From Candidatus Omnitrophota bacterium (lineage in GTDB: Bacteria > Omnitrophota > Gorgyraeia > JABMRG01): 64,000 bases of DNA. Shown here piece by piece: positions 3,486-58,183 of the stretch. Where the stretch lies: positions 50,458 through 114,457 of the forward strand of contig JAQUQI010000001.1 of assembly GCA_028716165.1 (NCBI GenBank), read 5' to 3'. A program made the position numbers and the translations under genes. The notes beneath the pieces are model-generated. The model saw only the letters and a list, made by a program, of their open reading frames with translations, had not been told where the DNA came from and ran no database searches. The first letter of the stretch is position 1, and each line of letters begins with the position of its first letter.

Positions 3486-3493
3486 AATGGAAA

Positions 3494-4174: not shown

Positions 4175-4183
4175 AATTCCTCC

Positions 4184-10541: not shown

Positions 10542-10561
10542 GTTATCGCCTTATAAGATAA

Positions 10562-11551: not shown

Positions 11552-11589
11552 AAAACATTTTTCCCTTCATTTATACGCTATATTTGATA

Positions 11590-12218
11590 TTACCCCTTAT
11601 AGATGAAACTCATTCCTGAGTCACCGTAAGGACGCCAAGAAACTAACTCAGATTTAAAACAATTATTAATAGCTCCTGCCATACCCCTCGTAAAATCTGC
11701 TCTATAATTAAAATATTCACCGGCCAGGATTACTGTACCAGATTGTAGATAAGGTTTAATAAATCTAAGAGCATCCATAGTTGATTCCCATAAATCGCAA
11801 TCTAATATAACTAATGCTGCTTTGTTTTTTAAATCTAACAATGGTATATTTGAAAAATAACCCTGCACTATAGTATAATCTGATTGCGGGATTCCTTGTT
11901 TATGCAATTTTTGGACAAGGCTTTCTTTGCTAAATGTATATTTGCCTTTATGATATTTTCCATCAAGCGTGTCCTTTGGTGCTGGTAAACCCGCAAAAGA
12001 ATCAAACAGGTAAAAGTGCCTATTAATACCTCTATGCTCTCTGTAAGCAGCTACAAAATCCGCACCAGAGCCTACACCAAAATGAAAATAATCGCCAACT
12101 ACTTTATTGCAAGATAAATATTGACTAGAATGATAATAAATACCGCTACGACTTAAATAATCAAATAATATACCACTTCTTAATCGTGATACCCCCCCCT
12201 AATCAATCTTTCTATCAT
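11590..12218 (-). pseudogene. TylF/MycF-family O-methyltransferase interrupted by a frameshift at a C8 homopolymer (possibly phase-variable)
   Basis: An AGGAGG ribosome-binding site precedes ATG at 12218; the ATG frame reaches a stop 13 codons in. A different frame continues from the C8 tract (12192-12199) through FHFGVGSGADF, FDSFAGLP and LDCDLWESTMDAL to 11590. One extra C would fuse the two frames. Confidence 0.6.
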
Positions 12219-12246
12219 CACACAACCTCCTCTTTGGTTATAATGG

Positions 12247-15919: not shown

Positions 15920-16975
15920 TTAAAGCAATCTGCCCGCGGCCTTATTACTATCGCATGCCGATATAAGGCCCTGGCATACCCTCTCTGCCCCATTGCCATC
16001 AATAAGTTTTAGCCCATTAGCCGCCATGGCTTTTCTGCGCGCCGGCTTTGCCATAAAATCCCTGACGGCCTTTTCCAGAGAGAGATCAAACAGTGTACTT
16101 TCATTGTAAAAAGCGCCGAGTATAATCTCTCTGGCCGATAATTCAGACACATTGCCAAACTGGTTCTCCCACAGGCCTATGCCGATCGTCGGACGCCCCA
16201 GAGAAACCAGCTCATATAAAGTCTGGCCTCCGGCGCAAAATGCCAGTGAACATGCCCTCATATAATTGAAAAGCCCTGAAGGCGCGAATATGAGCTTGAC
16301 ATCCTTTTTCATTAAGCCTGCCTGGGCCTCTATCGCGGCTGTATTATCATAATAAGGCCCGACTATTACCGTGACGCTAAAAGAGCCGTCAATGCCTTCA
16401 AGTATTTTAAGTATCCTGGTGCTCAAATCATAGTGGTCAACCCCGCCCATGGTAATAAGCACATTATCAATATTATCGCTCTCGCTATAAGAGGCATTAA
16501 TGCCCCAGAAATCACTGCCAAGTATCAGATATCTTATGCCTAAAAAAAGCATTGTCCCTTCGGGCGCGTCGTATTTCATCGCTTCGGCATTAAGATTGCC
16601 GTTTATAATAATATGGGAGGGTACGCGCGCGCTGGCTGTATCATCTATAGAAACTGTCAGAAATCCCTTATCCATAAGCTTTTGCCTGAATCCTTCGCCT
16701 ATCTCATATGAATCAATAATAATCATATCGGCTTTAAGCCTTTGGGCCTCTTCCATGGTCCGAAGGCAATCACCCGGCGAGCCTGTCTTAAGATCCATTG
16801 CCGTATAGCCAAAACCTTCTTTATCCAGGAATTGCCCGGCGCATTTATCATCTGCTATCAAAAAACGCGCCGAAATATTCTTTTGTCTGAATTTCTGCGC
16901 CAGGCAAAGGCATCTTTTAAGATGGCCTAAAGCAATCTCTTTTTTGGCGTCAACTCTTATCAGTGCCGTGCGCAC
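15920..16975 (-). CDS. pseG: UDP-2,4-diacetamido-2,4,6-trideoxy-beta-L-altropyranose hydrolase (PseG-like)
   Basis: N-terminal RVDAKKEIALGHLKRCLCLAQ resembles the PseG IG-GH--R-L-LA motif. The fold is MurG/GT28-like and the gene lies inside the pse cluster. Confidence 0.55.
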   Translation of the reverse strand: MRTALIRVDAKKEIALGHLKRCLCLAQKFRQKNISARFLIADDKCAGQFLDKEGFGYTAMDLKTGSPGDCLRTMEEAQRLKADMIIIDSYEIGEGFRQKLMDKGFLTVSIDDTASARVPSHIIINGNLNAEAMKYDAPEGTMLFLGIRYLILGSDFWGINASYSESDNIDNVLITMGGVDHYDLSTRILKILEGIDGSFSVTVIVGPYYDNTAAIEAQAGLMKKDVKLIFAPSGLFNYMRACSLAFCAGGQTLYELVSLGRPTIGIGLWENQFGNVSELSAREIILGAFYNESTLFDLSLEKAVRDFMAKPARRKAMAANGLKLIDGNGAERVCQGLISACDSNKAAGRLL

Positions 16976-17012
16976 AGGATATCTCCTTCTTCTTCAGGCA
17001 GTGCCTGGAATT

Positions 17013-19121
17013 TTAAGCCTTATTGTTTTTATAAACGTAAACCGTAAAATCATGCCCCATATAATCATGCCTTAATACGGCTCTTCGGCTAAGCTTCAGG
17101 CAAAAATCAAGCGTATCTCCGGCCTGGGCATAATATTCCTGCTGATTAAAAAAATCCGCTTTAACACTCATCATATTAAAACCTATGCCCAGGCGGCAGG
17201 CGTCAAACATAGCCGTAATAGTATCGCTTACATACCTTTCATGCTCCGGCACTCTGCGGTTGAAAATACCCGAACAAAGTATATAATCATAAAAAAGGCC
17301 TGCCGGAATATCGCCTATGCCGCCGTGTATAAATTCTCCTTTGGGATATTTTTGCCTTGCCCGTTCTATCATGGACAAAGAAATATCCATTCCCGTATAA
17401 TCCGCCTTTATATCAGCCTCTTTCATCCAGCCGTAAAGATCGCCAAGCCCACAGCCGAGATCAAGGACCGATTTACCGTTTAGATCAGCTATAAGAGAGA
17501 GTATTTCAAAACGCTTTTCCTGCGAAGCCTTGCTTCCCCACGCGACAGAACCTATATCAGAACCATGCTGTTTTATATTATCATCATAAAAATCAACCAA
17601 AGCCTTCACGCCGGAGGCCTTGCAAGATAAAGCCTTTGCAACAGGCTCTTCGCAGGCTTGGCATGCACCGTCATAGCGCATGGCCAGATAACCCGACGGC
17701 CTGTCTTCATATGGAAATTCGTAAAAACCACACTTAGAAAAAAGCGACACGCTCGCCCTATTATCTTTTTTCATGACAGCAATGAATACTCCGTCCGGTT
17801 TTTTCCCCCGCATAACGCGAATACCATCTAAAAGCGCGGCAGGCCCTATGCCCATGCCGGTATATTTTTCCAAAAGATATATGCTTACAATATAATGCCC
17901 TTTTGCCGACAGCTCAAACCTGACCTGGCCTGCCGGAATATCCTTATAATTGATGATAAAAAAACCAGCCTCCTGGTCTTTCAGTATGCCGTCAAACCAT
18001 GCCGAATGCTCCTGCCGCGTAACCGCCCTGCCGCTTCCGCCTAAGCCTATCAGAAACGGCGTATTTCTCCAGCCAAATATCATGTCTTTGTCTTTGGCCT
18101 CAACCGGCCTTAAAGCGATGTCCCGGCGCGCGGCCTGTCCGCCTTCTTTAAGGCAAAATGAAAGAGTGCGCGATATGCCCTCTTTAAGTTTTACGCGCGG
18201 CCTGAAATTAAAAGCCTCTGTTATTTTTTTCGTATCAGAATAAAATTTGCCTAATTCTCCCACGCGTTCCGGCCGGCTTTCAAATACCGGCTTTTTGCCG
18301 CGCGCCTGACAAAATGCCTCAAAAACATCCATAACCGATACGCCTTCTCCACAGCCTACATTAAAGGTCTGCCCGGAACCGGCATTAAAGGCCGTAATAG
18401 TCGCTTCAACGGCATCATCTATGTAAATATAATCTCTCAAATGCATGCCGTCTCCAAATATGGTAAGGGGCAGGCCCTTGGCTATGCGGTCGGCAAATAT
18501 CGCTATTACTCCAACCTCGCCGAATATAGGCTGTCTCGGGCCATAAATATTGGCATAGCGGAGTATAGTATAATCAATCCCGAAATTATCGGAATAATAC
18601 CTTATATATTCCTCGGCGCATTTTTTAGCCACCCCGTATGAATAAACAGGCACAGGCTCATCACTCTCTTTTGCCGGAAGCAGTTTCGGCCTGCCGTATA
18701 CAGCCACCGAGGACGCGTATACGATCTTTTTTACCTTAAAATCAAGGCAGGATTTTAAAAGATTTATAGTGCCTATAACACTGCTTGCTATATCCGCGGC
18801 AGGGTCTTCAAGTTTTACGTTAAGGTTTATCTTGGCAGCCTCATGCAGGACATAATCAATCTTATGGCATCCGAATATCTTCTTCAAGATACCCATATCC
18901 GATATATCCGCCTTGTAAAAAACAACGCGCTGATCAATGTTTTCCAGCCTGCCTGTGCTTAGATTGTCTACAACAATAACATCATGGCCCAGAGACAATA
19001 ATCTATCAACCGCGTGAGAGCCGATAAAACCCGCTCCGCCGGTAACAAGAAAACACGCCTTCGTAAAATTTTTTATATTATTTCCTTTTACCATGCTATT
19101 TATCTGGCCAGGTCCTGCCAT
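17013..19121 (-). CDS. tri-domain fusion: NAD-dependent epimerase/dehydratase + GNAT N-acetyltransferase (PseH-like) + class I SAM methyltransferase
   Basis: [11 protein letters not shown] with a Y-x3-K region at the N-terminus, a GNAT region in the middle, and VLDLGCGLGDL at the C-terminus. 702 aa. Confidence 0.65.
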   Translation of the reverse strand: MAGPGQINSMVKGNNIKNFTKACFLVTGGAGFIGSHAVDRLLSLGHDVIVVDNLSTGRLENIDQRVVFYKADISDMGILKKIFGCHKIDYVLHEAAKINLNVKLEDPAADIASSVIGTINLLKSCLDFKVKKIVYASSVAVYGRPKLLPAKESDEPVPVYSYGVAKKCAEEYIRYYSDNFGIDYTILRYANIYGPRQPIFGEVGVIAIFADRIAKGLPLTIFGDGMHLRDYIYIDDAVEATITAFNAGSGQTFNVGCGEGVSVMDVFEAFCQARGKKPVFESRPERVGELGKFYSDTKKITEAFNFRPRVKLKEGISRTLSFCLKEGGQAARRDIALRPVEAKDKDMIFGWRNTPFLIGLGGSGRAVTRQEHSAWFDGILKDQEAGFFIINYKDIPAGQVRFELSAKGHYIVSIYLLEKYTGMGIGPAALLDGIRVMRGKKPDGVFIAVMKKDNRASVSLFSKCGFYEFPYEDRPSGYLAMRYDGACQACEEPVAKALSCKASGVKALVDFYDDNIKQHGSDIGSVAWGSKASQEKRFEILSLIADLNGKSVLDLGCGLGDLYGWMKEADIKADYTGMDISLSMIERARQKYPKGEFIHGGIGDIPAGLFYDYILCSGIFNRRVPEHERYVSDTITAMFDACRLGIGFNMMSVKADFFNQQEYYAQAGDTLDFCLKLSRRAVLRHDYMGHDFTVYVYKNNKA

Positions 19122-20140
19122 GTTATGGGCGCGCCTTTGGCGATATCAACCTTAAGCGCGAGCCCTTTTACATTATCAATATCTTTAGGTTTTATCCCTG
19201 TGCCCGGTTTGGCGATCAGGATATCTTTTACGCCGAGCCTGCGGCCTTTTTTCATCCGCCTTGCCGCGACAAGGCTTAGCGTGAATTCCTGCCTGCATGC
19301 CATTTCGTTTTTTGCCGGGCATATAAGGGCACTGCCCATGCGTTTTTCCGCTTCCCGGATATCTTTTACATACGCCTTAAGCCCTGAAGGCGTCATGCTA
19401 AACCAGTGGTCGGGGCCGCTCATATTCCGGTCAAGGGTAAAATGCTTTTCAATAATACTCGCGCCCAGCGCCACAGATTGTACGGCCGCGGCATTGCCGA
19501 CCGTATGGTCTGAAAATCCGACAGGCAGATTAAACTTTTGCCTTAATGCCGCCATGCGCGCCAAGTTTACGTCATCTGCCTTGGCAGGATAATTACTCGT
19601 GCAATGAAGTAAAATAACCCGAGTCTTGCCCGAGGCTGAAGCCGCCTCAACCGCTTCTCTTATATCTTGCTCATAAGCCATGCCGGTAGATAAAATGATG
19701 GGCAGTCTAAAACCCGACATATATCTTAAAAGCGGAAGATGCGATAAATAGTCGGAGCCGTTTTTAAGCATTTTAACGCCCGCGCGGATAAGTTCATCAA
19801 CGCCCTTTTTTGATGTCGGCGTTGACAAAAAATCTATGCCGAGGCAATCGCAAAGTTTTTTTAATTTTTCAATCCAGCCTTTGCCCATCTGGCACCGCCT
19901 GCATAACTGCCACATGGACTGTGTCTTTTTCCTGCCGCGCTCTTTATACGTGTAGGTGATAGATCTATCTACGATAAAATCTTTTGTATCATAATTCTGG
20001 AATTTTACCGCGTCAGCGCCTGAATCAGCCGAGGTTCTGACCATATCGCATGCCGTATGCAGACTGCCGTTATGATTTATCCCGGCTTCGGAAATTATAT
20101 AGACTTTTTTGCCTTGGCGTAAATCGTAATCAGTTTTCAT
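19100..20140 (-). CDS. pseI: pseudaminic acid synthase (NeuB/PseI family) with C-terminal SAF domain
   Basis: IISEAGINHNGS motif of the NeuB family. 346 aa. Confidence 0.8.
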   Translation of the reverse strand: MKTDYDLRQGKKVYIISEAGINHNGSLHTACDMVRTSADSGADAVKFQNYDTKDFIVDRSITYTYKERGRKKTQSMWQLCRRCQMGKGWIEKLKKLCDCLGIDFLSTPTSKKGVDELIRAGVKMLKNGSDYLSHLPLLRYMSGFRLPIILSTGMAYEQDIREAVEAASASGKTRVILLHCTSNYPAKADDVNLARMAALRQKFNLPVGFSDHTVGNAAAVQSVALGASIIEKHFTLDRNMSGPDHWFSMTPSGLKAYVKDIREAEKRMGSALICPAKNEMACRQEFTLSLVAARRMKKGRRLGVKDILIAKPGTGIKPKDIDNVKGLALKVDIAKGAPITWQDLAR

Positions 20141-20855
20141 GGCCGGACTTTATTTTATTTAAATAATATTTTACCAGCGCCACGTCATCAGGCATATCAA
20201 CCTCAAGCGTATACATCATATCGCTCTGGATTACAGGAACGACATTATTGCCCAAATAAATATGGGCCTTTCTTATGCCGCGGGCTTTGTAAAGATTTTC
20301 AACCCTTAAGGCAAGCACCGATCCGTCAAGCAGATAGCGCTTCGGAAATTCCTGCCTTCTTATGCCCTTGACATCCTTTACTATCGGGACAAGCATGCCC
20401 TTTTTATTTATTATCTTCATGGCCTCGGGCACCTGATCGGCCTCATAACAGGTTACGCAGGAATCGGCCTTTGAGGCTATGAGTTTTTTGATAACCTTGT
20501 CTATAATACCCTTTTGCCTTATAGGGACATTGGCCTGCGTCCACACAACTATATCCGCGTGATAGCCGAATTGTTTCTTAAGATATTCAACCGCGTGCAG
20601 AAGGGCCTCTTCTATGGGGGAATCATCTTTGGCGAATTTGGCGGGCCGTTTTATTACTTCAATATCATAGACGCTTTTAACAATACCGGCTATCTTATCG
20701 CTATCGGTTGAGACAACCGCCTTATCTATAAGCTCGGAGGCAAGAACGTCTTCTATCGTATAACCTATAAGGGGCTTACCGTTAAAATCAACGGTATGCT
20801 TGTCTTTTACACCTTTTGACCCTCCGCGCGCCGGTATAATGCTTAATATTTTCAT
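20130..20855 (-). CDS. pseF: CMP-pseudaminic acid synthetase / acylneuraminate cytidylyltransferase
   Basis: ILSIIPARGGSKGVKDK motif. Confidence 0.75.
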   Translation of the reverse strand: MKILSIIPARGGSKGVKDKHTVDFNGKPLIGYTIEDVLASELIDKAVVSTDSDKIAGIVKSVYDIEVIKRPAKFAKDDSPIEEALLHAVEYLKKQFGYHADIVVWTQANVPIRQKGIIDKVIKKLIASKADSCVTCYEADQVPEAMKIINKKGMLVPIVKDVKGIRRQEFPKRYLLDGSVLALRVENLYKARGIRKAHIYLGNNVVPVIQSDMMYTLEVDMPDDVALVKYYLNKIKSGHEN

Positions 20856-20869
20856 CCATTCGCTCCTTT

Positions 20870-22234
20870 TTAGCTATGCCTTACCTTGTTCCAGGCCTTC
20901 AATTCATCAATCATGTTGGCCTGTATTTCATAAAGCTGTTTATCTGAAAAATTTGTAAAATTTATCCTTATCTTTTCGCCTTGCTCGCCAAGCGATAGTA
21001 TATATTCCTCTTCATTTTTTATCATACCCTTGTTTAATGCCATCTCATACAAGCGCGTGCCGGGATAGGGCGTTAAAAAGAATATAACTTCGGGGACAAG
21101 CTCTAATTCCTTGCAAAAATCAATAGTCTCTTGTATGCTCTGCTTTGTCTCGCCGGGATACCCTATCATAAACGAGGTATCGGCCCATCCGAGATGCTTT
21201 CTGGTAAGGGCTACCGCCTTTTTTGCCTGCGTGATAGTAACGCGTTTTTTGATAAAATCAAGCATGGCCTGGCTTCCGGACTCTATGCCGTATCCTATAA
21301 GAACACATCCTGCCTGCGACATGGCAATTATCATATCCTCGGTCATCAGATTCACCCTGCCGGCACAGCCCCAGGTAATGGGCGATCCTATCTCTTGTGA
21401 AAATTCCTTTACAAGCCGGCAAAACTCAAAAGTAAAATCCCTATTGACGACAAACTCATCATCAATAAAATGAAAATACTTGACCCCGTAGCGGTTATAA
21501 AGCTGTTTTATCTCTTCCATAATATTGCCAGGCGAACGGGTCCTGTATCTTGCGCCCATAAAATCATGGTAACAATACACGCACTGATAAGGACAGCCCC
21601 TTGTCCCGTATATGTTCATGGAAAGGCTTTCTCCGTCCCGCGATGAGCCGTCTATCCATTTATTCCTGTTCGGCGCGCCCACGGGGTTTTTCAGGTATAT
21701 ATCCATGGGGAAAAGATCCCATGCCGGCAAAGCTATACTGTCTAAATCCTTTACAGGTTGTCTCGGGGCGGTCCGGATTATGCCTCCTTTATCGTCTTTA
21801 TAACAAATGCCGTTTACCGAGGACAAGTCCCCGCCCGCGGCCATAACGGATATCAATTCTTTGATCGTCTCTTCTCCTTCGCCGATAACAACTATATCAA
21901 CAGGGTTTGACCCAAGCATTATAGCGGGAATAGACGAACCGACACTGCCTCCTACAATTATCTTTCTGCCGGGATGGTGTTTCTTCAAAACCGACACAAG
22001 CCATTTGACATACTTGTATATAGTAATTATGCCTCCGATACCTACGACATCGTAATCCGCCCCGCTTATCATTTCTTCTACCTTCTGCCTGTCCCATCTG
22101 TATCCGTTTATATCCATAACCCAGACATCATGGCCATCTTTAAGCAATACAGAAGCTATATAACCTAATCCAAGAGGAAATACATTAGGTTTAGACCATT
22201 CGCGTATCGGCGGATTTATCAATAATACTTTCAT
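20870..22234 (-). CDS. B12-binding-domain radical SAM enzyme (second copy)
   Basis: N-terminal B12-binding-like domain (MKVLLINPP...) followed by the radical-SAM cluster CPYQCVYC. Paralogue of 9096..10541. Confidence 0.75.
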   Translation of the reverse strand: MKVLLINPPIREWSKPNVFPLGLGYIASVLLKDGHDVWVMDINGYRWDRQKVEEMISGADYDVVGIGGIITIYKYVKWLVSVLKKHHPGRKIIVGGSVGSSIPAIMLGSNPVDIVVIGEGEETIKELISVMAAGGDLSSVNGICYKDDKGGIIRTAPRQPVKDLDSIALPAWDLFPMDIYLKNPVGAPNRNKWIDGSSRDGESLSMNIYGTRGCPYQCVYCYHDFMGARYRTRSPGNIMEEIKQLYNRYGVKYFHFIDDEFVVNRDFTFEFCRLVKEFSQEIGSPITWGCAGRVNLMTEDMIIAMSQAGCVLIGYGIESGSQAMLDFIKKRVTITQAKKAVALTRKHLGWADTSFMIGYPGETKQSIQETIDFCKELELVPEVIFFLTPYPGTRLYEMALNKGMIKNEEEYILSLGEQGEKIRINFTNFSDKQLYEIQANMIDELKAWNKVRHS

Positions 22235-23379
22235 CTTAGAGCGTCCTTTAATATTTTCACAACACGGCGTATGTCCGACGGTTTGAGCGAAACATGAAGC
22301 GGCAGTGACAGTGTACCACGGTAATATCTGTCCGCGTTAGGGTAATCAGAGCGCACTCCCAAAGACCTTTTCGCGTAATAGGGGTGCTCATAAACAGGTA
22401 TATAATGGACCTGGGCTCGTATCTTATGAAGTAAAAGTTTTTCAAATACCTGCCTGCGTTTCTTACAGTCTTTGAGCCTGATAAAAAATAAATGGCACGC
22501 GCTGCGGCAATTATCTGATTCGGGCGGCAATTGAATATCACGGCAATCGCAAAGCAATTCCCGGTAAAGCGCGGCAAGCTCATTTCGCTTACCGATAAAG
22601 GCTTTGAGTTTTTTAAGCTGTGATATGCCGAGCGAGCACTGTATATCGGTTAGCCTGTAATTAAACCCTAACTCTTTCATTTCATAATACCAGGGCCCTT
22701 TTTTGGCTAAAATATTTTTATCCTTATAAGTGCCGTGCGCGCGCAATGCGCGCAATCTCCGGTATAAATTGGCATTATTTGTCGTAATCGCCCCGCCCTC
22801 GCCGGTGGTAATAGATTTTACTGGATGAAAACTAAATACCGACATGTCAGAGTGCTGGCAGGAACCTGTCTTGTGCCATACGCCGCCGCAGCGGTATTCG
22901 GCGCCTAAAGCGTGGCAGGCGTCTTCAATTATTGTTAAAGATCTTTTAAGGGCTATCTTTTTTATGCGCTCCATATCACAGGGAAAACCCGCGAAATGCA
23001 CGGGTAGAATGGCTTTGGTCTTTCTGGTAATCTGTTTCTCTATCAAAGAGGGGTTTATATTGACCGTGATGGGGTCTATATCGGCAAATACGGGCTTTGC
23101 CCCTGTATACAATACGGCATTTGATGTCGCCAAAAAAGTAATAGGGCTGGTAATAGCCTCGTCCCCGGGCTTGAGGCCGCAGGCAATACAGGCCAGATGA
23201 AGCGCCGCTGTTCCGCTTGAAAGCGCCACGCAATAACGTGCTGTCGTGTATTTACAGATCATGGATTCAAATTCATCCACTCTCGGGCCTTGCGTAAGCC
23301 AGTCCGAACGAAGCGCGCCAACCACTTCTTCTATATCCCGGCTATCAATGCATTGTCTTCCGTAACAAAGGTTTTTCAT
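22231..23379 (-). CDS. pseC: UDP-4-amino-4,6-dideoxy-N-acetyl-beta-L-altrosamine transaminase (DegT/DnrJ/EryC1 family)
   Basis: PLP-aminotransferase fold with a lysine region and a typical PseC-like N-terminus (YGRQCI..DI..V...L.S.WLTQGP). Confidence 0.8.
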   Translation of the reverse strand: MKNLCYGRQCIDSRDIEEVVGALRSDWLTQGPRVDEFESMICKYTTARYCVALSSGTAALHLACIACGLKPGDEAITSPITFLATSNAVLYTGAKPVFADIDPITVNINPSLIEKQITRKTKAILPVHFAGFPCDMERIKKIALKRSLTIIEDACHALGAEYRCGGVWHKTGSCQHSDMSVFSFHPVKSITTGEGGAITTNNANLYRRLRALRAHGTYKDKNILAKKGPWYYEMKELGFNYRLTDIQCSLGISQLKKLKAFIGKRNELAALYRELLCDCRDIQLPPESDNCRSACHLFFIRLKDCKKRRQVFEKLLLHKIRAQVHYIPVYEHPYYAKRSLGVRSDYPNADRYYRGTLSLPLHVSLKPSDIRRVVKILKDALR

Positions 23380-24365
23380 ACCATATCTTTGAGTATTTTT
23401 TGAAGCTCATTGCGGGTAAGGTTTTTATCGTTCTTATCACTGCGATAAGCAAAGCCGGGCTCAACCGGCTTATTCTTCTTGTATCTTTCAAATGCCTTTG
23501 TGCCCTGCCTGGCAAATTGGGATATTATAACATAGATATCGTCAAGGACCTTCGTATTGCGGCTTTCATCCTCCGATATAAGCGTTTCATGCACCTTCTC
23601 TCCCGGGCGTATGCCGGTGACCTTGAATTCGCAATCAGGATCAATCGCCCTGGCAAGGTCTGTTATTTTCATTGAAGGAATCCTGGGCACAAATACTTCT
23701 CCGCCTACAGCAACCTCAAGCGCCTTTATGACAAGCCCGACGCTTTGTTTTAAAGTCATCCAGAAACGGGTCATATTAAGGTCTGTTATGGGAAATTCTT
23801 TTACGCCTTTTTGTTTCAGGTCCATAAACAAGGGTATGACACTGCCGCGTGATGCCACAACATTGCCGTATCTTACCACGGAAAATGCCGTTCTGTCTCC
23901 GCCATAAGCGTTTGCCGCGATAAATATTTTTTCAGCGGCAAGCTTCGTCGCGCCGTAAAGGTTTATCGGGTTTACCGCCTTATCCGTTGACAAAGCTATT
24001 ACTTTTTTAACTCCGGAATCTATCGCCGCGTCAACAATATTGTCGGCGCCTATAATATTGGTCTTTACAGCCTCTATCGGATTATACTCTAAAGCTGGCA
24101 CTTGCTTTAATGCCGCGGCGTGGATCACTATGTCAACGCCGTAAAAAGCCCTGCCGAGCCTGCTCCTGTCCCTGATATCTCCCAAAAAATAACGTATTGG
24201 ATATTTACCGTCGGGAAAAAGCTTTGCCATATTATACTGTTTGAACTCGTCCCTGCTGAATACTATGACCTTTTTCGGCTTATAGGAATCAAACGCGGCT
24301 TGGACAAATTCATGTCCGAATGAGCCTGTGCCGCCGGTTATTAAGACAGTGCTGTTATTTAACAT
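23376..24365 (-). CDS. pseB: UDP-N-acetylglucosamine 4,6-dehydratase (inverting), PseB/FlaA1 family
   Basis: VLITGGTGSFG N-terminus. 329 aa. Confidence 0.8.
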   Translation of the reverse strand: MLNNSTVLITGGTGSFGHEFVQAAFDSYKPKKVIVFSRDEFKQYNMAKLFPDGKYPIRYFLGDIRDRSRLGRAFYGVDIVIHAAALKQVPALEYNPIEAVKTNIIGADNIVDAAIDSGVKKVIALSTDKAVNPINLYGATKLAAEKIFIAANAYGGDRTAFSVVRYGNVVASRGSVIPLFMDLKQKGVKEFPITDLNMTRFWMTLKQSVGLVIKALEVAVGGEVFVPRIPSMKITDLARAIDPDCEFKVTGIRPGEKVHETLISEDESRNTKVLDDIYVIISQFARQGTKAFERYKKNKPVEPGFAYRSDKNDKNLTRNELQKILKDMV

Positions 24366-24768
24366 AAGTTTCTCCCGCTGTATGCTTGCGTTTTACGTTA
24401 AACCCTTTAGGCAGTGTGCCAAAAGAAGCTTCCGCCTCTTTTTTCAGGGCAAGATACTCTTCCTCCTTGCGCTTAAGGTAGTGATGGGTATAGCGAAGCT
24501 TGGTCTCTATGCCTTTCTGCGTTAAAAGATAGCCTATCTTTCTGGCCTTTTGCCCTTCCTGGGTAAAATGCTTTATGGATACAAGGCCTCTTTTGGCTAT
24601 TACCTTAAGCAGGTAATTTATCTTACCCAGAGAAACGCCAAGACAGCTTGACAGGTCTCTTTGCGTCGGCTTGCTTCCCGAATAAAGTATCCTTAATATA
24701 TTAAAAATATCTTCCCTTATATCTTCTCTTATATTGTCTTTCATATACTGCCATCTCCGGCGCGGCAA
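24355..24768 (-). CDS. winged-helix transcriptional regulator (MarR-like, EPS-associated type)
   Basis: TQRDLSSCLGVSLGKINYLLKVIAKRGLV helix-turn-helix region. Small regulator embedded in the glycan locus. Confidence 0.5.
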   Translation of the reverse strand: MPRRRWQYMKDNIREDIREDIFNILRILYSGSKPTQRDLSSCLGVSLGKINYLLKVIAKRGLVSIKHFTQEGQKARKIGYLLTQKGIETKLRYTHHYLKRKEEEYLALKKEAEASFGTLPKGFNVKRKHTAGETYVK

Positions 24769-25649
24769 GCTTTGGGGCTTTTTTTGCAGGCGCTATCTTC
24801 GCGCACGCGGCTTAATATGTATACCAGATCGCTTTTTGCAAGCCTCCTCGGCCCGTCTTTTATTCTCTTATACTTCAATATCATGCCGGCAAGCCTGTCC
24901 GGCTTAAAATCAGGCATTATTATGTTCCGGGAATATTTTCGCAATAAAGAAACCACTTGCCGGGTAGACTCTAATCCCATAAGATAGGGAAGTTTGGCAT
25001 AATCCATAAACTGGACAAAATACGGCAATAGTTTACCGCATGCCGCGGCATGGCTTAGCCCATATCGGGAGGTAAAAGGATAAGACGAGGCATGGACAAC
25101 ATTGGTCTTGGAAATCTCTATGGCCTTTCCCGCTTCGTTTCCGGCTTTTATCAAAAGATCATTGTCCTTTGACTTGATATAGCTCATAAGCATGCGTAAT
25201 GCGCGGGCGCAATATCTGCGGCTTGGGCCTGTCGCGTTAACAGACCACAAAGACTCTATCGCGTGCGCGAAAGCGTCAAGCATAGTAAGCCTTGCCGTTT
25301 CGGCAGGAAGACTTTTGGCAATGCCTGGTATAAATTTTAATATGGGCTTTGCCGTGGCAACCGATATCTTGCCGCCTGCTTTCCAAAGTGTCGCGTAAGG
25401 CGTAATAGCCGCGCCGGATGCGGTAGACGGTATGGTTATCGCGGGCTTTCTGCCCGATATAACCTTGGCCGTATCAATCGCGCTTCCGCCTCCTATGCCT
25501 ATTACGACGTCCTTATCTGTTTTAAATCTAAGCAGATCAGTGCCGGGCTGGCCCGATACTGTTAAAAAATCCGTGTCTTTATAGCCTTGGGCAATTTTTA
25601 AAGCAAGGGCCTTATTACTTTTGCTATATACTATTAACGCTGAGCGCAT
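24741..25649 (-). CDS. iron-containing alcohol dehydrogenase family protein; weak, conjectural assignment as a phosphonoacetaldehyde reductase (FomC/PhpC-like)
   Basis: GIGGGSAIDTAK motif. 302 aa, short for the Fe-ADH family, so the call is weak. It lies immediately downstream of the decarboxylase and mutase genes. Confidence 0.5.
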   Translation of the reverse strand: MRSALIVYSKSNKALALKIAQGYKDTDFLTVSGQPGTDLLRFKTDKDVVIGIGGGSAIDTAKVISGRKPAITIPSTASGAAITPYATLWKAGGKISVATAKPILKFIPGIAKSLPAETARLTMLDAFAHAIESLWSVNATGPSRRYCARALRMLMSYIKSKDNDLLIKAGNEAGKAIEISKTNVVHASSYPFTSRYGLSHAAACGKLLPYFVQFMDYAKLPYLMGLESTRQVVSLLRKYSRNIIMPDFKPDRLAGMILKYKRIKDGPRRLAKSDLVYILSRVREDSACKKSPKACRAGDGSI

Positions 25650-26109
25650 GTTTAAACCTTGTCATAATCTCGCCGGGTTTCATGGGTATACGCGGCGCCA
25701 CACCCTTGTCTTTATCAACCTTTATCACGTATGTATTGGGCGCTATAGAAGCAAAGTCAACCGCGTCCGAACATGTCGGCTGGCCGCCCGTTGAACTGCA
25801 GCAATTATTATCCAGTATATAATGCTTTAGATTGGCAGGATTAAGCTTTTTATGAAGCGCCAATGTGCCTAAAGACATAAGCACGGCCGCGTCTCCGGAT
25901 ATCACGATAACCTTGCAGGAAGAATTGATAGCTATGCCAAGGCCTATGCCCAGAGCCGACCCCATGCTTCCGAGCATATAAAAATTCCTGTCCCTGTCCA
26001 TTACAGCGTATAATTCCCTTGATATCATGCCCGTGGATGAGACTACCGCCTCATCGGTGACATTTTTCATGATAGCGCTTATCGCCTCAATTCTCTTCAT
26101 TTTCATCAA
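25624..26109 (-). CDS. phosphonopyruvate (or sulfopyruvate) decarboxylase, beta subunit (TPP-binding)
   Basis: GDxxxLM thiamin-diphosphate motif (ISGDAAVLMSLG). 161 aa. Confidence 0.65.
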   Translation of the reverse strand: MMKMKRIEAISAIMKNVTDEAVVSSTGMISRELYAVMDRDRNFYMLGSMGSALGIGLGIAINSSCKVIVISGDAAVLMSLGTLALHKKLNPANLKHYILDNNCCSSTGGQPTCSDAVDFASIAPNTYVIKVDKDKGVAPRIPMKPGEIMTRFKHALSVNSI

Positions 26110-26437
26110 ATATCCTATAATCGTCGTATTCCAGAAGTTCCAATAGTTTTATTGTAATGCTTGCCATAAAAGCGTGGTGTTCTGGCTTGTCCCTTAGGCT
26201 GACAAGAAGCCCTATCCGCATCCCATAAGGCTTGACAAGCGAGGTCACTATATCAACTATATTTCCGAGCCCGCTATTCTGCAAAAAGACAAGCGGTTTT
26301 TTACCTGCCAAATAGGCGCCCGCGGCAAGCGCCATGGCTTCGTCTTCTTTTGTGCACGGGATATAGTTCTCTATCCGGTTTATGAATTTTTTTAATTTAG
26401 AGCACGGCACGCCGAAAACGGCGTCATAATCTTTCAT
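26087..26437 (-). CDS. phosphonopyruvate (or sulfopyruvate) decarboxylase, alpha subunit (TPP pyrimidine-binding)
   Basis: 116-aa TPP N-terminal domain (EDEAMALAAGAYLAGKK). It overlaps the beta-subunit gene. Confidence 0.55.
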   Translation of the reverse strand: MKDYDAVFGVPCSKLKKFINRIENYIPCTKEDEAMALAAGAYLAGKKPLVFLQNSGLGNIVDIVTSLVKPYGMRIGLLVSLRDKPEHHAFMASITIKLLELLEYDDYRIFDENEEN

Positions 26438-27714
26438 TTTTTACCGAACCTTTTTTCAATCATTTCAGTCTCTTTTATGGGCGTAAGATATCTCATGTCG
26501 TCAAGCGTTGCCGAGAGCCCTTTTTCTATGGCTAAGGTATTGTCATTCTCCTTGATAAGCCTAAGGCCCTGGCGTATGGCCTTAATCTTTATCCTTTCCG
26601 TCTGATTGGCAAGCACTACAACGGAAAACCCCGCGTGGAACAGGCGTTTATTGTTTATCTGTGGAAATTTTGTCGGTACTATTACAAGGGGCGTATCCAA
26701 TTTCCACCTGCCGGGTATAGACAAAGCCTGCCTGCCCGTAGCCTCTCTTGTGTGTATCATCACCATGTCCGCGCCGCAAGAAGCATAATACTTGGCCCTT
26801 TTGACTGCTTCAGCCATACCGTATCCGCGTATCAATGCCTCTGTCCTTGCCACTATTATAAAATCCCTGGTATTCTGCGAGGCCTTGCCCGCCATTATTT
26901 TCATGCCATGCTCTTGCATAGACAAGAGAGGGACTTTACCGCCCCATAATGAATTCTGTTTGGGGAATATATTGTCCTCAACGCATATGCCAGCACAGCC
27001 TATCTTTTCAAATTCCTTTACCGTCCTTACAAAGTTATGCAGTCCGCCGTATCCGTTATCGGTATCCACTATCACGGGCAATGAAGTGGCATCAACAATA
27101 GGCTTGGCAACATTAAGCATATCGGTCATTGTTATAGAACCATTATCAGTCAGCCCCAGCCTGGCAGAGGCCTCAAAACCCGATACCCATATACCGTCAA
27201 AATCCGCCTCTTCCACAAGCCTTGCCGTTATCGCGTCCCCTGCGGAGACAAGCACGGCCTTTTTGCCCTTATCAACAGAAGCCTTCAGGCTCTTTCTTTG
27301 TTTTATCCTATCCAATATGGCTGTGGTTGTGACATCAGGATATGCCTCCACCTGGACTACCTTGCATAATTTTTGCTGTTTTATCTTTTTATATTCGGCA
27401 GGCAGCCAGTCATTACCGTGAACAGCTATATCAACTTTATATTTTTTGATGTTTTCGGACATAGTAGGGCGCCTGGAACCCATGCAGTCTTCCACGACCA
27501 GGTCCACACCCCTGACAGATTCTATTATGGCCTTTCTGTCTTCAAAGGGTATGACAGGGTTTCTCTTGTAGGCCTTGATAATATCATCCGGGTGAAGGCC
27601 TATGATCACAAAATCCCCAAGCGTGTTTATCTTTTTGATAAATTCTAAATGCCCGCGGTGAAAAAGATCACCTGCCATCGTGGCATATACTATCCTTTCC
27701 TTTTTATTGTGCAT
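26434..27714 (-). CDS. bifunctional cytidylyltransferase / phosphoenolpyruvate mutase (Fom1-like)
   Basis: N-terminal HxGH nucleotidyltransferase motif (AGDLFHRGHLEFIKK). The C-terminus belongs to the PEP mutase/isocitrate lyase superfamily (VIVDTDNGYG, CVEDN). 426 aa. Confidence 0.75.
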   Translation of the reverse strand: MHNKKERIVYATMAGDLFHRGHLEFIKKINTLGDFVIIGLHPDDIIKAYKRNPVIPFEDRKAIIESVRGVDLVVEDCMGSRRPTMSENIKKYKVDIAVHGNDWLPAEYKKIKQQKLCKVVQVEAYPDVTTTAILDRIKQRKSLKASVDKGKKAVLVSAGDAITARLVEEADFDGIWVSGFEASARLGLTDNGSITMTDMLNVAKPIVDATSLPVIVDTDNGYGGLHNFVRTVKEFEKIGCAGICVEDNIFPKQNSLWGGKVPLLSMQEHGMKIMAGKASQNTRDFIIVARTEALIRGYGMAEAVKRAKYYASCGADMVMIHTREATGRQALSIPGRWKLDTPLVIVPTKFPQINNKRLFHAGFSVVVLANQTERIKIKAIRQGLRLIKENDNTLAIEKGLSATLDDMRYLTPIKETEMIEKRFGKK

Positions 27715-27850: not shown

Positions 27851-29467
27851 TTATTTGCGGGTAGCCCGCTTCGGGGCAGGTTTTGGCTTCGCGGGCAATA
27901 TTTTGCCGGATCGCAGGACATAGCGCCTGCCGCAATACGAGCAGTCCGCCTTACCGCCAACAGGCTTAATCCTTGTCCCGCACTCACAGGCCCAGCCTAT
28001 CTGGCGGGCGGGAACACCGGCAACCATGCAATAATCCGGTATATCTTTTTTTACAACCGCGCCGGCCGCCACAAAGGCATAATTGCCTATTGTAATGCCC
28101 GATATTATCGTGGCATTGGCGCCTATTGAGGCGCCCTTTTTAACAAGTGTGGGTAAAAATTCTTTTTTTCTGTCTATAAAAGCCCTCGGCGTATAAACAT
28201 TGGTAAATACGCACGACGGCCCGCAGAATACATCGTCTTCAAGGCAAACACCTTTATACACGGATACATTATTTTGTATCTTACAGCCGTTACCTATTTT
28301 AACATCAGGGCCTATGGAAACGTTTTGGCCTATTACACAGTTTTGGCCTATATCGGAACCGGAGAGTATATGCGAAAAATGCCATATCTTTGTTCCGCGG
28401 CCGATTATGGCGCCTTCTTCCACATATGAGCTCTGATGGCAAAAATAATCTTTTTCACGCAATGGCCCGCGCGCACTGCCGGTTTCTTTTCTTATCAGCA
28501 TATCCGCCTCCTCAAGAACGCTTAATACCCTTAGCCCTTCCCTGCCGTCTGTCAAAGGGGCCTTTCTCTGCCTTACACAATGCACAAAATGCGCTATCTC
28601 TTCTTTCAAAGGCTCTTTGTCTTCAATCTCTATTATCTGACAGTCCGCTTTTACGGCAATAGGCGGCCCGCCATTATTCCGTGTTATCTTGTGCGGATAG
28701 ATAAATAGCTTTTCCCGTGTCATATCGTCAAAAACCGCCATGGCCTTTGAGCCCACGACCACGAGCTTTTGTTCTTTATACGGGTTAAGCCAGCTTACGA
28801 ATATATGAGCCTTGACCTTGTTTTTGAATTCAAGAGTAGTCAGGGTAACATCATGGACTTTACTGCTTAGATAATCCTCTCCGAAACAGCCTATCTTTAC
28901 AGGCATATCATTTAAAAGCATGAGTATCACCGATATATCATGCGGGGCAAAACTCCATAGGATGTTTTCTTCAACCCTGACCTTGCCGATATTAAGCCTG
29001 TTGGAATTGACATACTGTATATCGCCCAATAAGCCCTGGCCGATAAGCTCCTTAAGTTTTATAACAGCGGGATGATATTGCAGGATATGGCCTACCATCA
29101 ATACGCGCCTCTTCTCTTCGGCAATCCGGACAAGCTCTTCACCATCTCTGGTATTGAGCGCTAACGGTTTTTCAACAAAGACGTCCTTGCCGGCAAGGAG
29201 CGCGGCCTTGGCCATATTAAAATGCGCCGCCGCGGGCGTTGATATCAGAACGGCATTAACCAGCTCGTCCTTTATGATATCGTTAAAATCATCCGTAAAT
29301 CGCACGCCGGAAAAGGCGGGTTTTTTTTCTTCAAGGGTCTTTATATCAGTATCACAGGCGGCATAAAGAAGGCCTGTCTGATAGGCATTGCGCAATATAT
29401 TCTTGCCCCAATAACCCAGGCCCGCGACCGCCAACCTTATATCTTGTTCTTGTCTTTGCATATGCAA
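27851..29467 (-). CDS. fusion of Gfo/Idh/MocA oxidoreductase and hexapeptide-repeat acyltransferase (WbpB/WbpD-like)
   Basis: N-terminal LAVAGLGYWGKN Rossmann motif. The C-terminal half has a left-handed beta-helix of hexapeptide repeats and a terminal Cys4 ribbon. Confidence 0.65.
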   Translation of the reverse strand: MHMQRQEQDIRLAVAGLGYWGKNILRNAYQTGLLYAACDTDIKTLEEKKPAFSGVRFTDDFNDIIKDELVNAVLISTPAAAHFNMAKAALLAGKDVFVEKPLALNTRDGEELVRIAEEKRRVLMVGHILQYHPAVIKLKELIGQGLLGDIQYVNSNRLNIGKVRVEENILWSFAPHDISVILMLLNDMPVKIGCFGEDYLSSKVHDVTLTTLEFKNKVKAHIFVSWLNPYKEQKLVVVGSKAMAVFDDMTREKLFIYPHKITRNNGGPPIAVKADCQIIEIEDKEPLKEEIAHFVHCVRQRKAPLTDGREGLRVLSVLEEADMLIRKETGSARGPLREKDYFCHQSSYVEEGAIIGRGTKIWHFSHILSGSDIGQNCVIGQNVSIGPDVKIGNGCKIQNNVSVYKGVCLEDDVFCGPSCVFTNVYTPRAFIDRKKEFLPTLVKKGASIGANATIISGITIGNYAFVAAGAVVKKDIPDYCMVAGVPARQIGWACECGTRIKPVGGKADCSYCGRRYVLRSGKILPAKPKPAPKRATRK

Positions 29468-29479: not shown

Positions 29480-30538
29480 TTAAAATGGGCAATAACTCGT
29501 CTTTGACGCCCATTCGCAAATGTCCTCTATGATCTTTTCTTTTGATGCCAGGGGAACCCAGCCAAAATCCGCCCGAATCCGGCTATTGTCAGAGATATAT
29601 ACCGGGATATCAAAAGGCCTTGTATTGGCCTGGGATAAAATACGAGTCTTATTGCCTGTCACAGCCTGGCATAATTCGGTAAGCTCAAGTAAAGACAATG
29701 AATTCTTTGCCCCTCCGCCCACATTATATACCCGGCCGCCTGCCTTACCCATGTCATCCGCCTGCATAGCTATAAGGCGGCAGAGGTCGTCAATGTGCAA
29801 GATATCTCTTACCTGTTTGCCTTTGCCCGACCATCCGATATAAGATACCGGCTTTTGAAAAAGATGGGACATGGCCCATAGGCTGATAAAACCCTGGTCT
29901 GTTTTGCCAAACTGCCACGCTCCTGCCACAACAGACATTCTGTTTATTACAGCCTTTATGCCGTAATTAGCGGCATATTCGGTAAGCAGTAATTCACAGG
30001 AAAGCTTTGTCGCCCCATAAAGGCTCCTGGCGCCTTCAAGGCTAAAACCTTCGCCTATGCCCCTTGAAGAAAAACCTGCTATCCGGCTTTTTTCATTCCA
30101 GATAAAACGCGATTTTTCCTCTTTGATCTTAAGGGCCCTTATGCCGGCATAGGGATAAACCCTGCTCGTTGATAAAAAAATAAAATCGCTTGCCTTTTTA
30201 CGGGCCAGCTCAAGGCAATTTACCATACCCATAAGATTGGTATTGATAACATATTCAGGCCCTGATGATATATCGGCAAGCACCGAAGGCTCGGCGCTGC
30301 ATTCTATGATAAGCCCGATCGGGGTTTTTATGTCAAGGTCTTCGCGGCACCTGATATCGCCGTGTAAAAAAACAATGCCGTTCTCGGACAATCGTTTAAT
30401 ATTAAGCTCCGAGCCGCGCCTTTTAAGACTATCCAATGCCATAATGCGCGCCTTTGGATACAGCTTCTTAAGATATAAGCAGATATTACTGCCGATAAAA
30501 CCCGCGCCGCCTGTTACCAGTATATTTTTATGCCCCAC
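29480..30538 (-). CDS. NAD-dependent sugar epimerase/dehydratase
   Basis: [13 protein letters not shown] motif. Confidence 0.7.
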
Positions 30539-31589
30539 TCCTGGCCTCCATTTCTTCGCACATCTGCGCTATAGTCTCATCCAGGTTGTATTCATAATCC
30601 CATTTTGGATAGTGGTTCTTGAATTTAGACACGTCTGATATATACCAGATATGGTCGCCCGTCCTCGGTTTATCGCAATATTCCATAACCGCCTTTTTAC
30701 CGGTTATGGCCTCTATCTTCTTTACCGCCTCAATTATAGAGATATTTGAATGCCTTGAACCGCCGATATTATACACCTCACCACAACGGGGATTACAATA
30801 AAAATGATAAAAGGCATTCACCAGATCGTGGGAGTGTATATTATCCCTTACCTGCTTGCCCTTGTAACCATTGATAATGTATTTTTTGCCGCAAAGCGCG
30901 CATTGGATAAGATAGGCGAGAAAACCGTGTAAAATCGCCGCGCTGTGACGAGGGCCCGTAAGACAACCTCCTCTAAAAACAGCTGTCTTTAATCCGAAAT
31001 ACCTGCCGTATTCCTGCACAAGAAGGTCGGCCGAGGCTTTTGAAACACCGAATAAGCTGTGCGTGGACATGTCAATACTCATGGTCTCGTTTATACCCTG
31101 ATAAAATTTGTGGCCTTGCGGTATTTCGTATCTTGTATCAAGCTCTACAAAAGGCAGGGTATTGGGGCTGTCTCCATAGACCTTGTTTGTGGAAGTAAAT
31201 ATAAAAACCGCTTCAGGGCAATACCTGCGAAAAACCTCAAGGAGCAAAAGCGTGGCAAAGGCGTTAACGCTAAAATCAGTCTCGGGGTCTGTTGCCGCCC
31301 AATCATGCGAAGGCTGGGCAGCGGCATGAATGATAAGGTTGAATTTATTTTTTTTAAATATGGCTTCTATGCCGGGCTTATCCCTTATATCAATATCTAT
31401 GTGCCTGAAGCCCGGGCAGTCCTTTATGAGAAGTTCTTTATTCCACGAAGTCCCGGCAGTAGGCCCAAAAAAAGAGCTTCTCATGTCATTATCAATTCCC
31501 GTGACAAGAAACCCTCTTTCAGAGAAAAATCTGACGGCCTCTGAACCGACTAATCCGCTGGAACCTGTTACAAGTACATTTGGGGTCAT
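30528..31589 (-). CDS. NAD-dependent sugar epimerase/dehydratase
   Basis: [13 protein letters not shown] motif and YGVSKAS catalytic region. Confidence 0.7.
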
Positions 31590-48816: not shown

Positions 48817-48817
48817 T

Positions 48818-50734: not shown

Positions 50735-50776
50735 TGCTAATCCTCTTTAATACGGAGGTGATTCCTTTTCCCTAAT

Positions 50777-51304: not shown

Positions 51305-51482
51305 CGTTACTTTTATCTATCATCCTTCCGGAATTTCTTCTCGCATTTTGGACATTCGACTTCGTTATCGAAAAACAGGCTGCACGGCACATCGGCGCCG
51401 CAGTGCGGGCATTTCACGACGTCTGCGCCCATGGTGAAATCGTAGCCTAGAAACTCATTGAACGAATCATCGCCGGGCATTG

Positions 51483-56305: not shown

Positions 56306-56484
56306 TATCTCTCCCTTTTATTTTTATCTTTCTGCATCGCCTGGTTAATAAATCCCCTGATGATAGACACAACGGATGCGTTCTTATTTTGCTTCTGCAA
56401 CTCGAGGGCTTTTTCTTTCAGAAAAAAATACTGGTCTTGCGTGATTTCAATTGTCGTTTTCTTTATGCGTTTATTGGCAGGCAT
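56305..56484 (-). CDS. small ribbon-helix-helix-like protein, candidate controller of the Type III R-M operon
   Basis: 59-codon ORF (MPANKRIKKTTIEITQDQYFFLKEKALELQ...). Its stop overlaps the mod ATG (TAATG). Shorter than the ORF-track cutoff. Confidence 0.35.
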   Translation of the reverse strand: MPANKRIKKTTIEITQDQYFFLKEKALELQKQNKNASVVSIIRGFINQAMQKDKNKRER

Positions 56485-58152: not shown

Positions 58153-58183
58153 TATTCTCATATTCACTGTTAAACGATTAATC

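Follow-up and report, generated by a model that had tools for sequence, protein, structure and literature searches.

What would a set of phosphonate-type genes make in the middle of a glycan operon, and where would its product go? This question is raised by a stretch of 64,000 nucleotides (hereafter the window) from a Candidatus Omnitrophota bacterium (GenBank assembly GCA_028716165.1, contig JAQUQI010000001.1, positions 50,458 to 114,457), in which positions 24741-27714 encode a fusion of a cytidylyltransferase with a phosphoenolpyruvate (PEP) mutase (PepM), the two subunits of a split phosphonopyruvate decarboxylase (Ppd) and a short iron-dependent alcohol dehydrogenase (Fe-ADH). An earlier reading made from the letters alone, referred to here as the sequence-only reading, had described this cassette as Fom1-like and placed it in a pseudaminic acid (Pse) locus. 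Profile scans of the open reading frames (ORFs) of the window with Pfam and NCBIfam bear out the domains and their coordinates, and the equivalog cut-offs of NCBIfam are exceeded by pseB, pseC and pseG; structural relatives were taken from sequence matches in the Protein Data Bank (PDB). The best reading, to which we give a probability of about two in three, is that the cassette would convert PEP into cytidylyl-activated 2-hydroxyethylphosphonate (CMP-HEP), which would then be transferred to an envelope glycan or glycolipid. It builds on observed domain identities, catalytic residues, purifying selection, cassette conservation and gene linkages, and goes beyond the sequence-only reading in three points: the EDN motif of the mutase, the mobility of the cassette, phages included, and a likely transferase module at 821-4174.

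Within the fusion, the CTP_transf_like domain PF01467 covers residues 16-122 (E 3e-12) and carries an H19-R-G-H22 (HxGH) motif, and the PEP_mutase domain PF13714 covers residues 149-386 (E 3e-49), the two domains extending over residues ~1-135 and ~140-426, respectively. When compared with solved structures, the mutase scores 178 bits with PepM 1m1b and 175 with PepM 5unc, versus 153 with phosphonopyruvate hydrolase (PPH) and 93 or less with the lyases (petal death protein 93, carboxyphosphoenolpyruvate (CPEP) mutase 82, and methylisocitrate lyases as well). Residues W176, S178, D190, D217, D219 and E246 align with W44, S46, D58, D85, D87 and E114 of Mytilus PepM, and K252, N254, S255, R290 and H321 with K120, N122, S123, R159 and H190; all of the checked Mytilus-equivalent catalytic and Mg-binding residues are invariant in an alignment of 22 homologues. 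The motif itself reads E246-D-N248-IFPK252-Q-N254-S255 (EDNIFPKQNS), and EDN stands in place of EDK in 117 of the 120 closest homologues. The window protein retains the PepM-type N-S pair, whereas the PPH motif, EDKTFPKDTS, differs at its end (T-S). A HMMER search of 1.84 billion representatives leaves a score gap between the window clade (362-265 bits) and everything else (228 or less); among the best 150 representatives, 99 read EDK…NS and about two dozen have N, S, Q, H or T at the Lys position with N-S kept. In a neighbour-joining tree rooted on a lyase, which was built without bootstrap and is indicative only, the window clade falls inside the PepM/PPH radiation, between the groups holding 5unc and 1m1b. 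Judged by these scores and this tree, the window mutase is a relative of PepM and not of CPEP mutase or isocitrate lyase, a grouping on which the earlier proposal depended. As a separate observation, about 17 of the best 150 representatives (P0123, P0126-P0129, P0142, P0144 and others) read EDNxFPKRCS, with Cys at the position of the essential Asn122 of PepM; many of these are 500-560-residue fusions, and the group branches near the root of the tree.

The partners of the mutase point in the same direction. The cytidylyltransferase domain has its best single-domain PDB match in the Fom1 CyTase 5x3d (66 bits), with TagD (62 bits) and ECT (48 bits per domain) close to this score; cytidylylation of HEP is the expected role of the fused HxGH domain, and specificity for HEP and CTP is suggested because the Fe-ADH is co-conserved and a transaminase forming 2-aminoethylphosphonate (AEP) is absent. 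For both decarboxylase subunits, the split Ppd 9iz3 is the best PDB match (9iz3_A 47 bits for alpha, 9iz3_B 81 bits for beta), and in NCBIfam the alpha subunit scores 87.8 bits with Ppyr-DeCO2ase versus 77.4 with sulfopyruvate decarboxylase alpha, both subunits being below the 312.5-bit cut-off of the Ppd equivalog TIGR03297. E31 and the QNSG motif of the alpha subunit are conserved in 23 sequences, and the thiamine-diphosphate motif G72-D73...N101-N102 (GDx(24-27)NN) of the beta subunit in 22-23. The metal ligands D125, H129, H186 and H200 of the Fe-ADH are likewise all conserved, ligand-residue conservation being counted over 21-23 sequences with full-length relatives included. The best NCBIfam model of this protein is TIGR03405, the phosphonate-associated Fe-ADH (85.2 bits versus a cut-off of 423.7), which is matched only at profile positions 126-286 of 355; in comparison with 1vhd, ~40 N-terminal residues and a loop of ~20 residues after the GGGS motif are missing. 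The sequence-only reading had called the reductase role conjectural; it becomes more than conjecture because the gene is the conserved fourth member of the cassette and keeps all four metal ligands. HEP is thus the expected end product of mutase, decarboxylase and reductase. Among the ORFs scanned (800-33000), no AEP transaminase, HEPD/MpnS-like protein, HppE-like cupin or DUF402/FomD-like protein was seen, in line with the earlier statement that HppE and FomD homologues are lacking, and no coenzyme-M or sulfolactate genes were found in the scanned ORFs of the array. Two other readings, one of a sulfopyruvate decarboxylase in a coenzyme-M pathway and one of a fosfomycin-like antibiotic, were rejected on gene context.

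The gene set fits the series of steps proposed earlier, from PEP through phosphonopyruvate and phosphonoacetaldehyde to 2-HEP and CMP-HEP. The PepM domain would convert PEP to phosphonopyruvate, which the two-subunit mini-Ppd would irreversibly decarboxylate to phosphonoacetaldehyde; the short Fe-ADH would reduce this to 2-HEP, and the HxGH domain would join HEP and CTP to CMP-HEP in the manner of Fom1. As a structural analogue of a CDP-alcohol, CMP-HEP could then be used by the PF01066-family membrane protein at 821-1693, probably acting with the LIC12162-family protein and the PIG-L deacetylase encoded beside it. The operon would build an envelope glycan or glycolipid, HEP would in this way be esterified onto it, and the ABC transporter at 4184-6013 would export the product. 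All catalytic activities, the substrate of the cytidylyltransferase and the acceptor are inferred here.

Are these genes, some of them far shorter than their characterised homologues, a working unit at all? Related loci are cited here by our L numbers and homologous proteins by P numbers. In L001, from a sister metagenome-assembled genome (MAG), the fusion is 88% identical and gene lengths and order are the same, and the ratio of nonsynonymous to synonymous substitution rates (dN/dS) between the window and L001 (PepM 0.07, PpdA 0.05, PpdB 0.07, ADH 0.17) indicates purifying selection. The four genes recur at 46-78% identity and near-constant sizes (112-119, about 158 and 285-302 residues) in MAGs of Omnitrophota and Elusimicrobia and in others labelled Planctomycetia, 'uncultured archaeon' and Woesearchaeota, always within polysaccharide loci that are otherwise unrelated to one another. 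Here, as in the majority of related loci, the Ppd subunits follow the mutase directly, and the Fe-ADH is the fourth gene in most loci with DNA beyond Ppd-beta. Because lengths recur across phyla, selection is purifying and the ligand residues are conserved, the four genes are, on this comparative evidence, a compact and horizontally mobile cassette rather than a product of gene decay; an origin of the short Ppd and ADH by pseudogenisation or frameshift was excluded on the same lengths and dN/dS values (0.05-0.17). Recent insertion into the window has left no compositional sign, the GC content of the cassette (0.46) being equal to that of its flanks. In one Elusimicrobia MAG (UBA5214), the cassette is present twice, on two contigs (L013 and L014), with a TagF-like gene after it in both cases, and one copy adjoins NeuB and CTP_transf_3 genes for nonulosonic acid (NulO).

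The cassette is also found beyond cellular genomes. Predicted viral contigs from IMG/VR carry the EDN-PepM together with the mini-Ppd and the short ADH (L020 8551-14411; L021/L023 9123-13779; L022 10001-13297; L028 10001-12513). In at least two of these contigs (L020 and L021) the genes next to the cassette include ones for DNA polymerase B, SbcCD-like proteins or a major head protein, and in the same two Ppd-beta occurs as a fusion with a GT2 glycosyltransferase (722 residues); LicD-like genes adjoin the cassette in L020, L022 and L028. Both published PepM inventories (PMC6697681, PMC8942020) filter on the motif EDKX5NS, and therefore they would drop the EDN clade; one of them, so filtered, reports no Ppm in 364 huge-phage genomes (PMC8942020). 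Searches of open-access text brought up no description of the EDN clade, the phage cassettes or the linkage of PF01066 and LIC12162 proteins.

As to the destination of the phosphonate, the sequence-only reading had favoured envelope decoration over an antibiotic, which fits the neighbours in about 20 loci. A CDP-alcohol-type phosphotransferase is encoded nearby, and often directly adjacent, in 14 of 18 non-truncated cassette loci, the partners being of the PF01066 CDP-OH_P_transf type (window 821-1693, L003, L004, L008, L012, L024, L026), the TagF-like PF04464 type (L013/L019, L014, L017) or the LicD PF04991 type (L011, L020, L022, L028). When the search is reversed and started from the window PF01066 protein, homologues of 40-51% identity lie within a few genes of PepM-Ppd-Fe-ADH sets in all six contexts sampled. 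Each of these clusters comprises a PepM fused to a nucleotidyltransferase, a Ppd that is not split, a Fe-ADH of full length and a LIC12162-type protein of ~600 residues; four of the six have a PF27859 annotation, and the other two have a LIC12162-type homologue. The LIC12162-family protein of the window (1620-3485) is 32-37% identical to the proteins whose genes immediately precede PepM in L029 and L030. The PepM motif is the canonical EDK…NS in L029, L030 and L031, the three checked. A PIG-L homologue lies beside the LIC12162-like gene at the 5' edge of L030 (55% identity over partial sequence), and a 607-residue ABC protein precedes that gene in L029. A word-indexed homologue search with the LIC12162-family protein returned three matches only, and Pfam at E up to 1 gives only faint polysialyltransferase matches. 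Because its genes recur with HEP sets, the 3' end of the array (821-6013) has the look of a module by which this system transfers and exports its product, and the EDN cassette, which lies 21 kb further upstream within the operon array, looks to be what serves it here.

The PF01066 protein has a peculiarity of its own. Its signature, DWSDGHLARVTNRQSCQGAMLDGYGA, departs from the canonical D-x2-D-G-x2-A-R-x8-G-x3-D-x3-D, and the subfamily signature is DxxDGxxARx8Gx3Dx3A, the fourth Asp being replaced by Ala in 109 of 120 homologues (P0270-P0389), by Gly in 7 and by Ser in 4. A regular expression for the full canonical signature found no match because this Asp is absent from the subfamily, and a relaxed pattern did match. 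The fourth Asp of the CDP-alcohol signature is the proposed catalytic base, and because of its absence the subfamily appears to form a distinct subgroup of PF01066.

Lipid head groups are the usual products of PF01066 enzymes, and it is therefore conceivable that the enzyme would move HEP to diacylglycerol or another membrane lipid and thus form a phosphonolipid, as proposed for the 'Burkholderiales_CDP-OH' clusters; PMC8942020 ties CDP-OH genes to phosphonate clusters and predicts phosphonolipids, and in L003 an LPG_synthase_TM gene follows the CDP-OH gene. This outcome is nevertheless unlikely, since the window and all six relatives embed the PF01066 gene among sugar-nucleotide, glycosyltransferase, flippase or Wzy genes, the TagF-like and LicD-like enzymes used in other cassette loci are glycan decorators, and the phage Ppd-beta is fused to a glycosyltransferase.

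Several observations weigh against CMP-HEP synthesis followed by transfer to the envelope. The window PepM departs from the canonical EDKX5NS by replacement of Lys116 (K116N), and TIGR02320 PEP_mutase, the top NCBIfam model of the fusion, scores 231.8 bits, under its cut-off of 319.55. The Ppd subunits and the ADH are far shorter than characterised homologues and below the curated cut-offs, and the beta subunit scores 133.8 with Ppyr-DeCO2ase versus 133.7 with sulfopyruvate decarboxylase beta, which is a tie. In L017, from an Endomicrobiales MAG, the fusion (10001-12477, 69% identity) is flanked by two TagF-like glycerophosphotransferase genes, and no Ppd or Fe-ADH gene lies within 18 kb. As for the module at the other end, the candidate transferase is without the fourth signature Asp and lies 23 kb from the cassette, and an AlphaFold2 model of the LIC12162-like protein, built on a three-sequence alignment, has a mean pLDDT of 39 and is unusable. 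By domains and catalytic residues, the proteins belong to the PepM, Ppd and Fe-ADH superfamilies; the equivalog thresholds are not reached, and the EDK signature is absent.

Some of these same points would suit a pathway without any phosphonate, in which K116N alters or abolishes the mutase and the thiamine-diphosphate enzyme and the Fe-ADH act on another 2-oxo acid, for instance from sulfopyruvate via sulfoacetaldehyde to isethionate: the motif is not EDKX5NS, every curated cut-off is missed, the beta subunit is tied and the ADH weakly matches sulfoacetaldehyde reductase. We consider this very improbable. All checked catalytic residues of Mytilus PepM are retained, EDK PepMs surround the clade in the tree, and the change from Lys to Asn, Ser or Gln recurs in several PepM lineages; canonical EDK PepM sets have the same transferase partners. 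The scanned ORFs of the array include neither coenzyme-M nor sulfolactate genes, and the closest solved decarboxylase is the split Ppd.

A further possibility concerns the radical SAM (rSAM) genes at 9096-10541 and 20870-22234 (both on the minus strand), which the sequence-only reading had called Fom3-class. In the generic sense this holds, as both combine a B12-binding domain (PF02310) with Radical_SAM (PF04055) and are class-B enzymes; the more specific sense does not, since no phosphonate-specific model scores better than BchE or HpnJ and no conserved partner of the cassette is found. The best NCBIfam models are BchE, HpnJ and ApyD, and among solved structures the sugar diol dehydratase AprD4 and 9ccb come closest, Fom3 itself being outside the models and structures compared. 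If one of these enzymes methylated CMP-HEP in a Fom3-like manner, CMP-2-hydroxypropylphosphonate or a C- or P-methylated phosphonate would be attached instead. Such methylation finds some encouragement in the B12-rSAM genes that lie less than 10 kb from the cassette or related HEP sets in many loci, and in the matches of the window enzymes to the PhpK and Sden_1168 P-methyltransferase models, which are weak and far under cut-off. It is distinctly unlikely in the window, however: neither gene adjoins the cassette or the transferase module, the one at 20870-22234 sits between pseC and the PseF-like gene and is conserved with them in L001, and several cassette loci have no rSAM gene. Searches by tblastn and all-against-all blastp revealed no conserved rSAM partner, because the rSAM proteins near cassettes in non-syntenic loci share only 22-37% identity with each other and with the two of the window, and without such a conserved link Fom3-like methylation in the window is unsupported. 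In the related HEP clusters L029 (2220-10915) and L030 (2218-10912), whose PepM is canonical, two B12-rSAM genes alternate with those for PepM, Ppd, Fe-ADH and a separate nucleotidyltransferase; if a phosphonate is methylated, in the manner of Fom3 or otherwise, this pair is a better candidate than the rSAMs of the window.

If HEP is transferred to the envelope, as favoured here, is pseudaminic acid its acceptor? The Pse sub-operon is syntenic in L001, and the pathway set PseB, PseC, PseH, PseG, PseI and PseF is represented in the window, the GNAT domain of the three-domain fusion at 17013-19121 presumably supplying the PseH function. The cassette has NulO-type or pseB-like genes beside it in three independent loci only (window/L001, L013/L019 and L027), and the remaining cassette loci are ordinary polysaccharide loci without NulO-type genes. 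To judge from these neighbourhoods, the cassette is a decoration module that can be plugged into loci for different glycans, and Pse is a candidate target only.

When set against known systems, the cassette appears to apply the logic of Fom1/FomC (CMP-HEP) to surface tailoring, like PntC/CMP-AEP and the HEP phosphonoglycans. With the fosfomycin pathway of Streptomyces wedmorensis it shares the N-terminal HxGH cytidylyltransferase-PepM fusion and the route through Ppd and Fe-ADH to 2-HEP and CMP-HEP; in contrast to that pathway, no HppE, FomD or demonstrable Fom3 orthologue is seen, the genes lie in a glycan operon rather than an antibiotic cluster, PepM is EDN instead of EDK, Ppd consists of two very small subunits, and the ADH has about 70 residues fewer. 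The Pnt pathways (Rice et al. 2019, PMC6697681) likewise use a PepM-cytidylyltransferase fusion to make a CMP-activated phosphonate, which phosphotransferases, LicD-like or of other kinds, are presumed to transfer to surface glycans or lipids; in that survey, PF01467 fusions account for 23.6% of all Ppm sequences. Here, however, an alcohol dehydrogenase (HEP) stands at the branch point instead of an AEP transaminase, and the EDKX5NS filter would remove the clade. Precedents for CMP-activated phosphonates and for CDP-OH partners can be found in PMC6697681 and PMC8942020. The HEP phosphonoglycan clusters of Stackebrandtia and Glycomyces and the methylphosphonate cluster of Nitrosopumilus (cited in PMC8942020) also make HEP by PepM, Ppd and Fe-ADH for exopolysaccharide, but they belong to other lineages and architectures and use full-length enzymes, and Nitrosopumilus adds MpnS, whereas the window has no dioxygenase. 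The 'Burkholderiales_CDP-OH' AEP group (Li & Horsman 2022, PMC8942020) similarly combines a phosphonate core with cytidylyltransferases and phospholipid-type CDP-OH genes; its product is AEP or hydroxy-AEP, with phosphonolipids predicted, whereas the window set is of HEP type and lies in a glycan operon, and its CDP-OH protein is paired with a LIC12162-family protein and belongs to the subfamily without the fourth signature Asp. Finally, the split Ppd 9iz3 also has separate PYR and PP subunits, of 181 (alpha) and 186 (beta) residues; the window subunits have 116 and 161 residues, and in the comparison of the alpha subunits ~27 N-terminal and ~33 C-terminal residues lie outside the aligned core.

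All ORFs of the cassette region are on the minus strand and belong to a single minus-strand gene array (Table 1). Start and stop codons overlap as ATGA at the PepM/PpdA junction, where the Ppd alpha start overlaps the PepM stop, and at the ADH/MarR junction, and because of these overlaps the cassette genes are translationally coupled with their neighbours; the likely start of the MarR-family gene is the ATG at 24744, which overlaps the ADH stop, and its L001 homologue has 129 residues. A promoter-like TTGACA-16-GATAAT (31665-31638) precedes the first sugar gene, and hrcA-grpE-dnaK-dnaJ lies upstream of the glycan operon.

Table 1. Features of the window, in order of position
Feature	Position	Strand	Remarks
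CDP-alcohol phosphotransferase-family membrane protein, candidate CMP-HEP:acceptor phosphonyltransferase	821-1693	-	PF01066 43 bits, cut-off 22; from the second Met identical (100%) to an NCBI MAG protein
LIC12162-family putative transferase	1620-3485	-	621 aa; PF27859 in precomputed annotation of the identical protein P0390
PIG-L-family de-N-acetylase	3494-4174	-	directly beside the LIC12162-family gene
ABC exporter, candidate flippase/exporter of the product	4184-6013	-	transmembrane and ATPase domains
Pse sub-operon	15920-24365	-	syntenic in L001
pseG	15920-16975	-	NCBIfam equivalog 175, cut-off 154
Epimerase, GNAT and methyltransferase fusion	17013-19121	-	702 aa; SDR epimerase/dehydratase, GNAT acetyltransferase, SAM methyltransferase
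NeuB-family synthase	19100-20140	-	below NCBIfam equivalog cut-off
PseF-like CMP-transferase	20130-20855	-	below NCBIfam equivalog cut-off
pseC	22231-23379	-	NCBIfam equivalog 472, cut-off 424
pseB	23376-24365	-	NCBIfam equivalog 474, cut-off 408
MarR-family EPS-associated regulator	24355-24768	-	TIGR04176 86.2 bits, cut-off 88
Short Fe-ADH, putative phosphonoacetaldehyde reductase	24741-25649	-	302 aa; Fe-ADH domains
Ppd beta	25624-26109	-	161 aa; TPP_enzyme_C, PP domain
Ppd alpha	26087-26437	-	116 aa; TPP_enzyme_N, minimal PYR domain
Cytidylyltransferase-PEP mutase fusion	26434-27714	-	426 aa; PF01467 and PF13714
GFO/IDH/MocA dehydrogenase fused to hexapeptide acyltransferase	27851-29467	-	among the first genes of the glycan operon
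Two SDR epimerase/dehydratases	30528-31589, 29480-30538	-	first genes of the glycan operon
TIR-domain protein, PDC-S66/ThsB-like	46032-46895		defence island
Complete Gabija pair	GajB 46870-48816, GajA 48818-50734		defence island; GajB 857 bits, GajA 668 bits
Type III restriction-modification pair	Res 51483-54398, Mod 54398-56305		defence island
PDC-S39 candidate	60259-62058		defence island

Two other parts of the window deserve a mention. The segment 10000-14000 has a low GC content (0.34-0.38 versus about 0.45) and contains an orphan ORF of 484 residues (12247-13701), directly downstream of a second CTP_transf_3 gene, for which neither Pfam (E up to 1) nor NCBIfam gives a match, as well as a TylF-like fragment of 105 residues (11590-11907) that resembles a gene remnant. 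A defence island (46032-62058) lies upstream of the housekeeping genes.

The attachment of activated phosphonates to cell surfaces is an open step of the phosphonyl tailoring pathway (PMC6697681), and the reciprocal linkage of HEP sets to the PF01066 subfamily and the LIC12162 family names concrete candidates for it. In its most specific form, the idea would be that the EDN PepM, on a cassette moving among uncultured phyla and tailed phages, feeds CMP-HEP to this dedicated PF01066 subfamily and its LIC12162 partner, giving a phosphonate-esterified Pse glycan or, where the partners are TagF-like, a HEP-linked teichoic-acid-like polymer. This is a doubtful extension, offered tentatively; if true, phosphonyl transferases of the tailoring pathway would have been identified for the first time, and present counts of phosphonate producers in the environment and among viruses would be too low. 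The 116-residue Ppd alpha and the Fe-ADH of roughly 290 residues are useful as natural minimal scaffolds. Because the EDKX5NS filter drops PepM systems that look real, in Omnitrophota, Elusimicrobia and tailed phages, phosphonate producers probably span a wider range of taxa and viruses than has been estimated.

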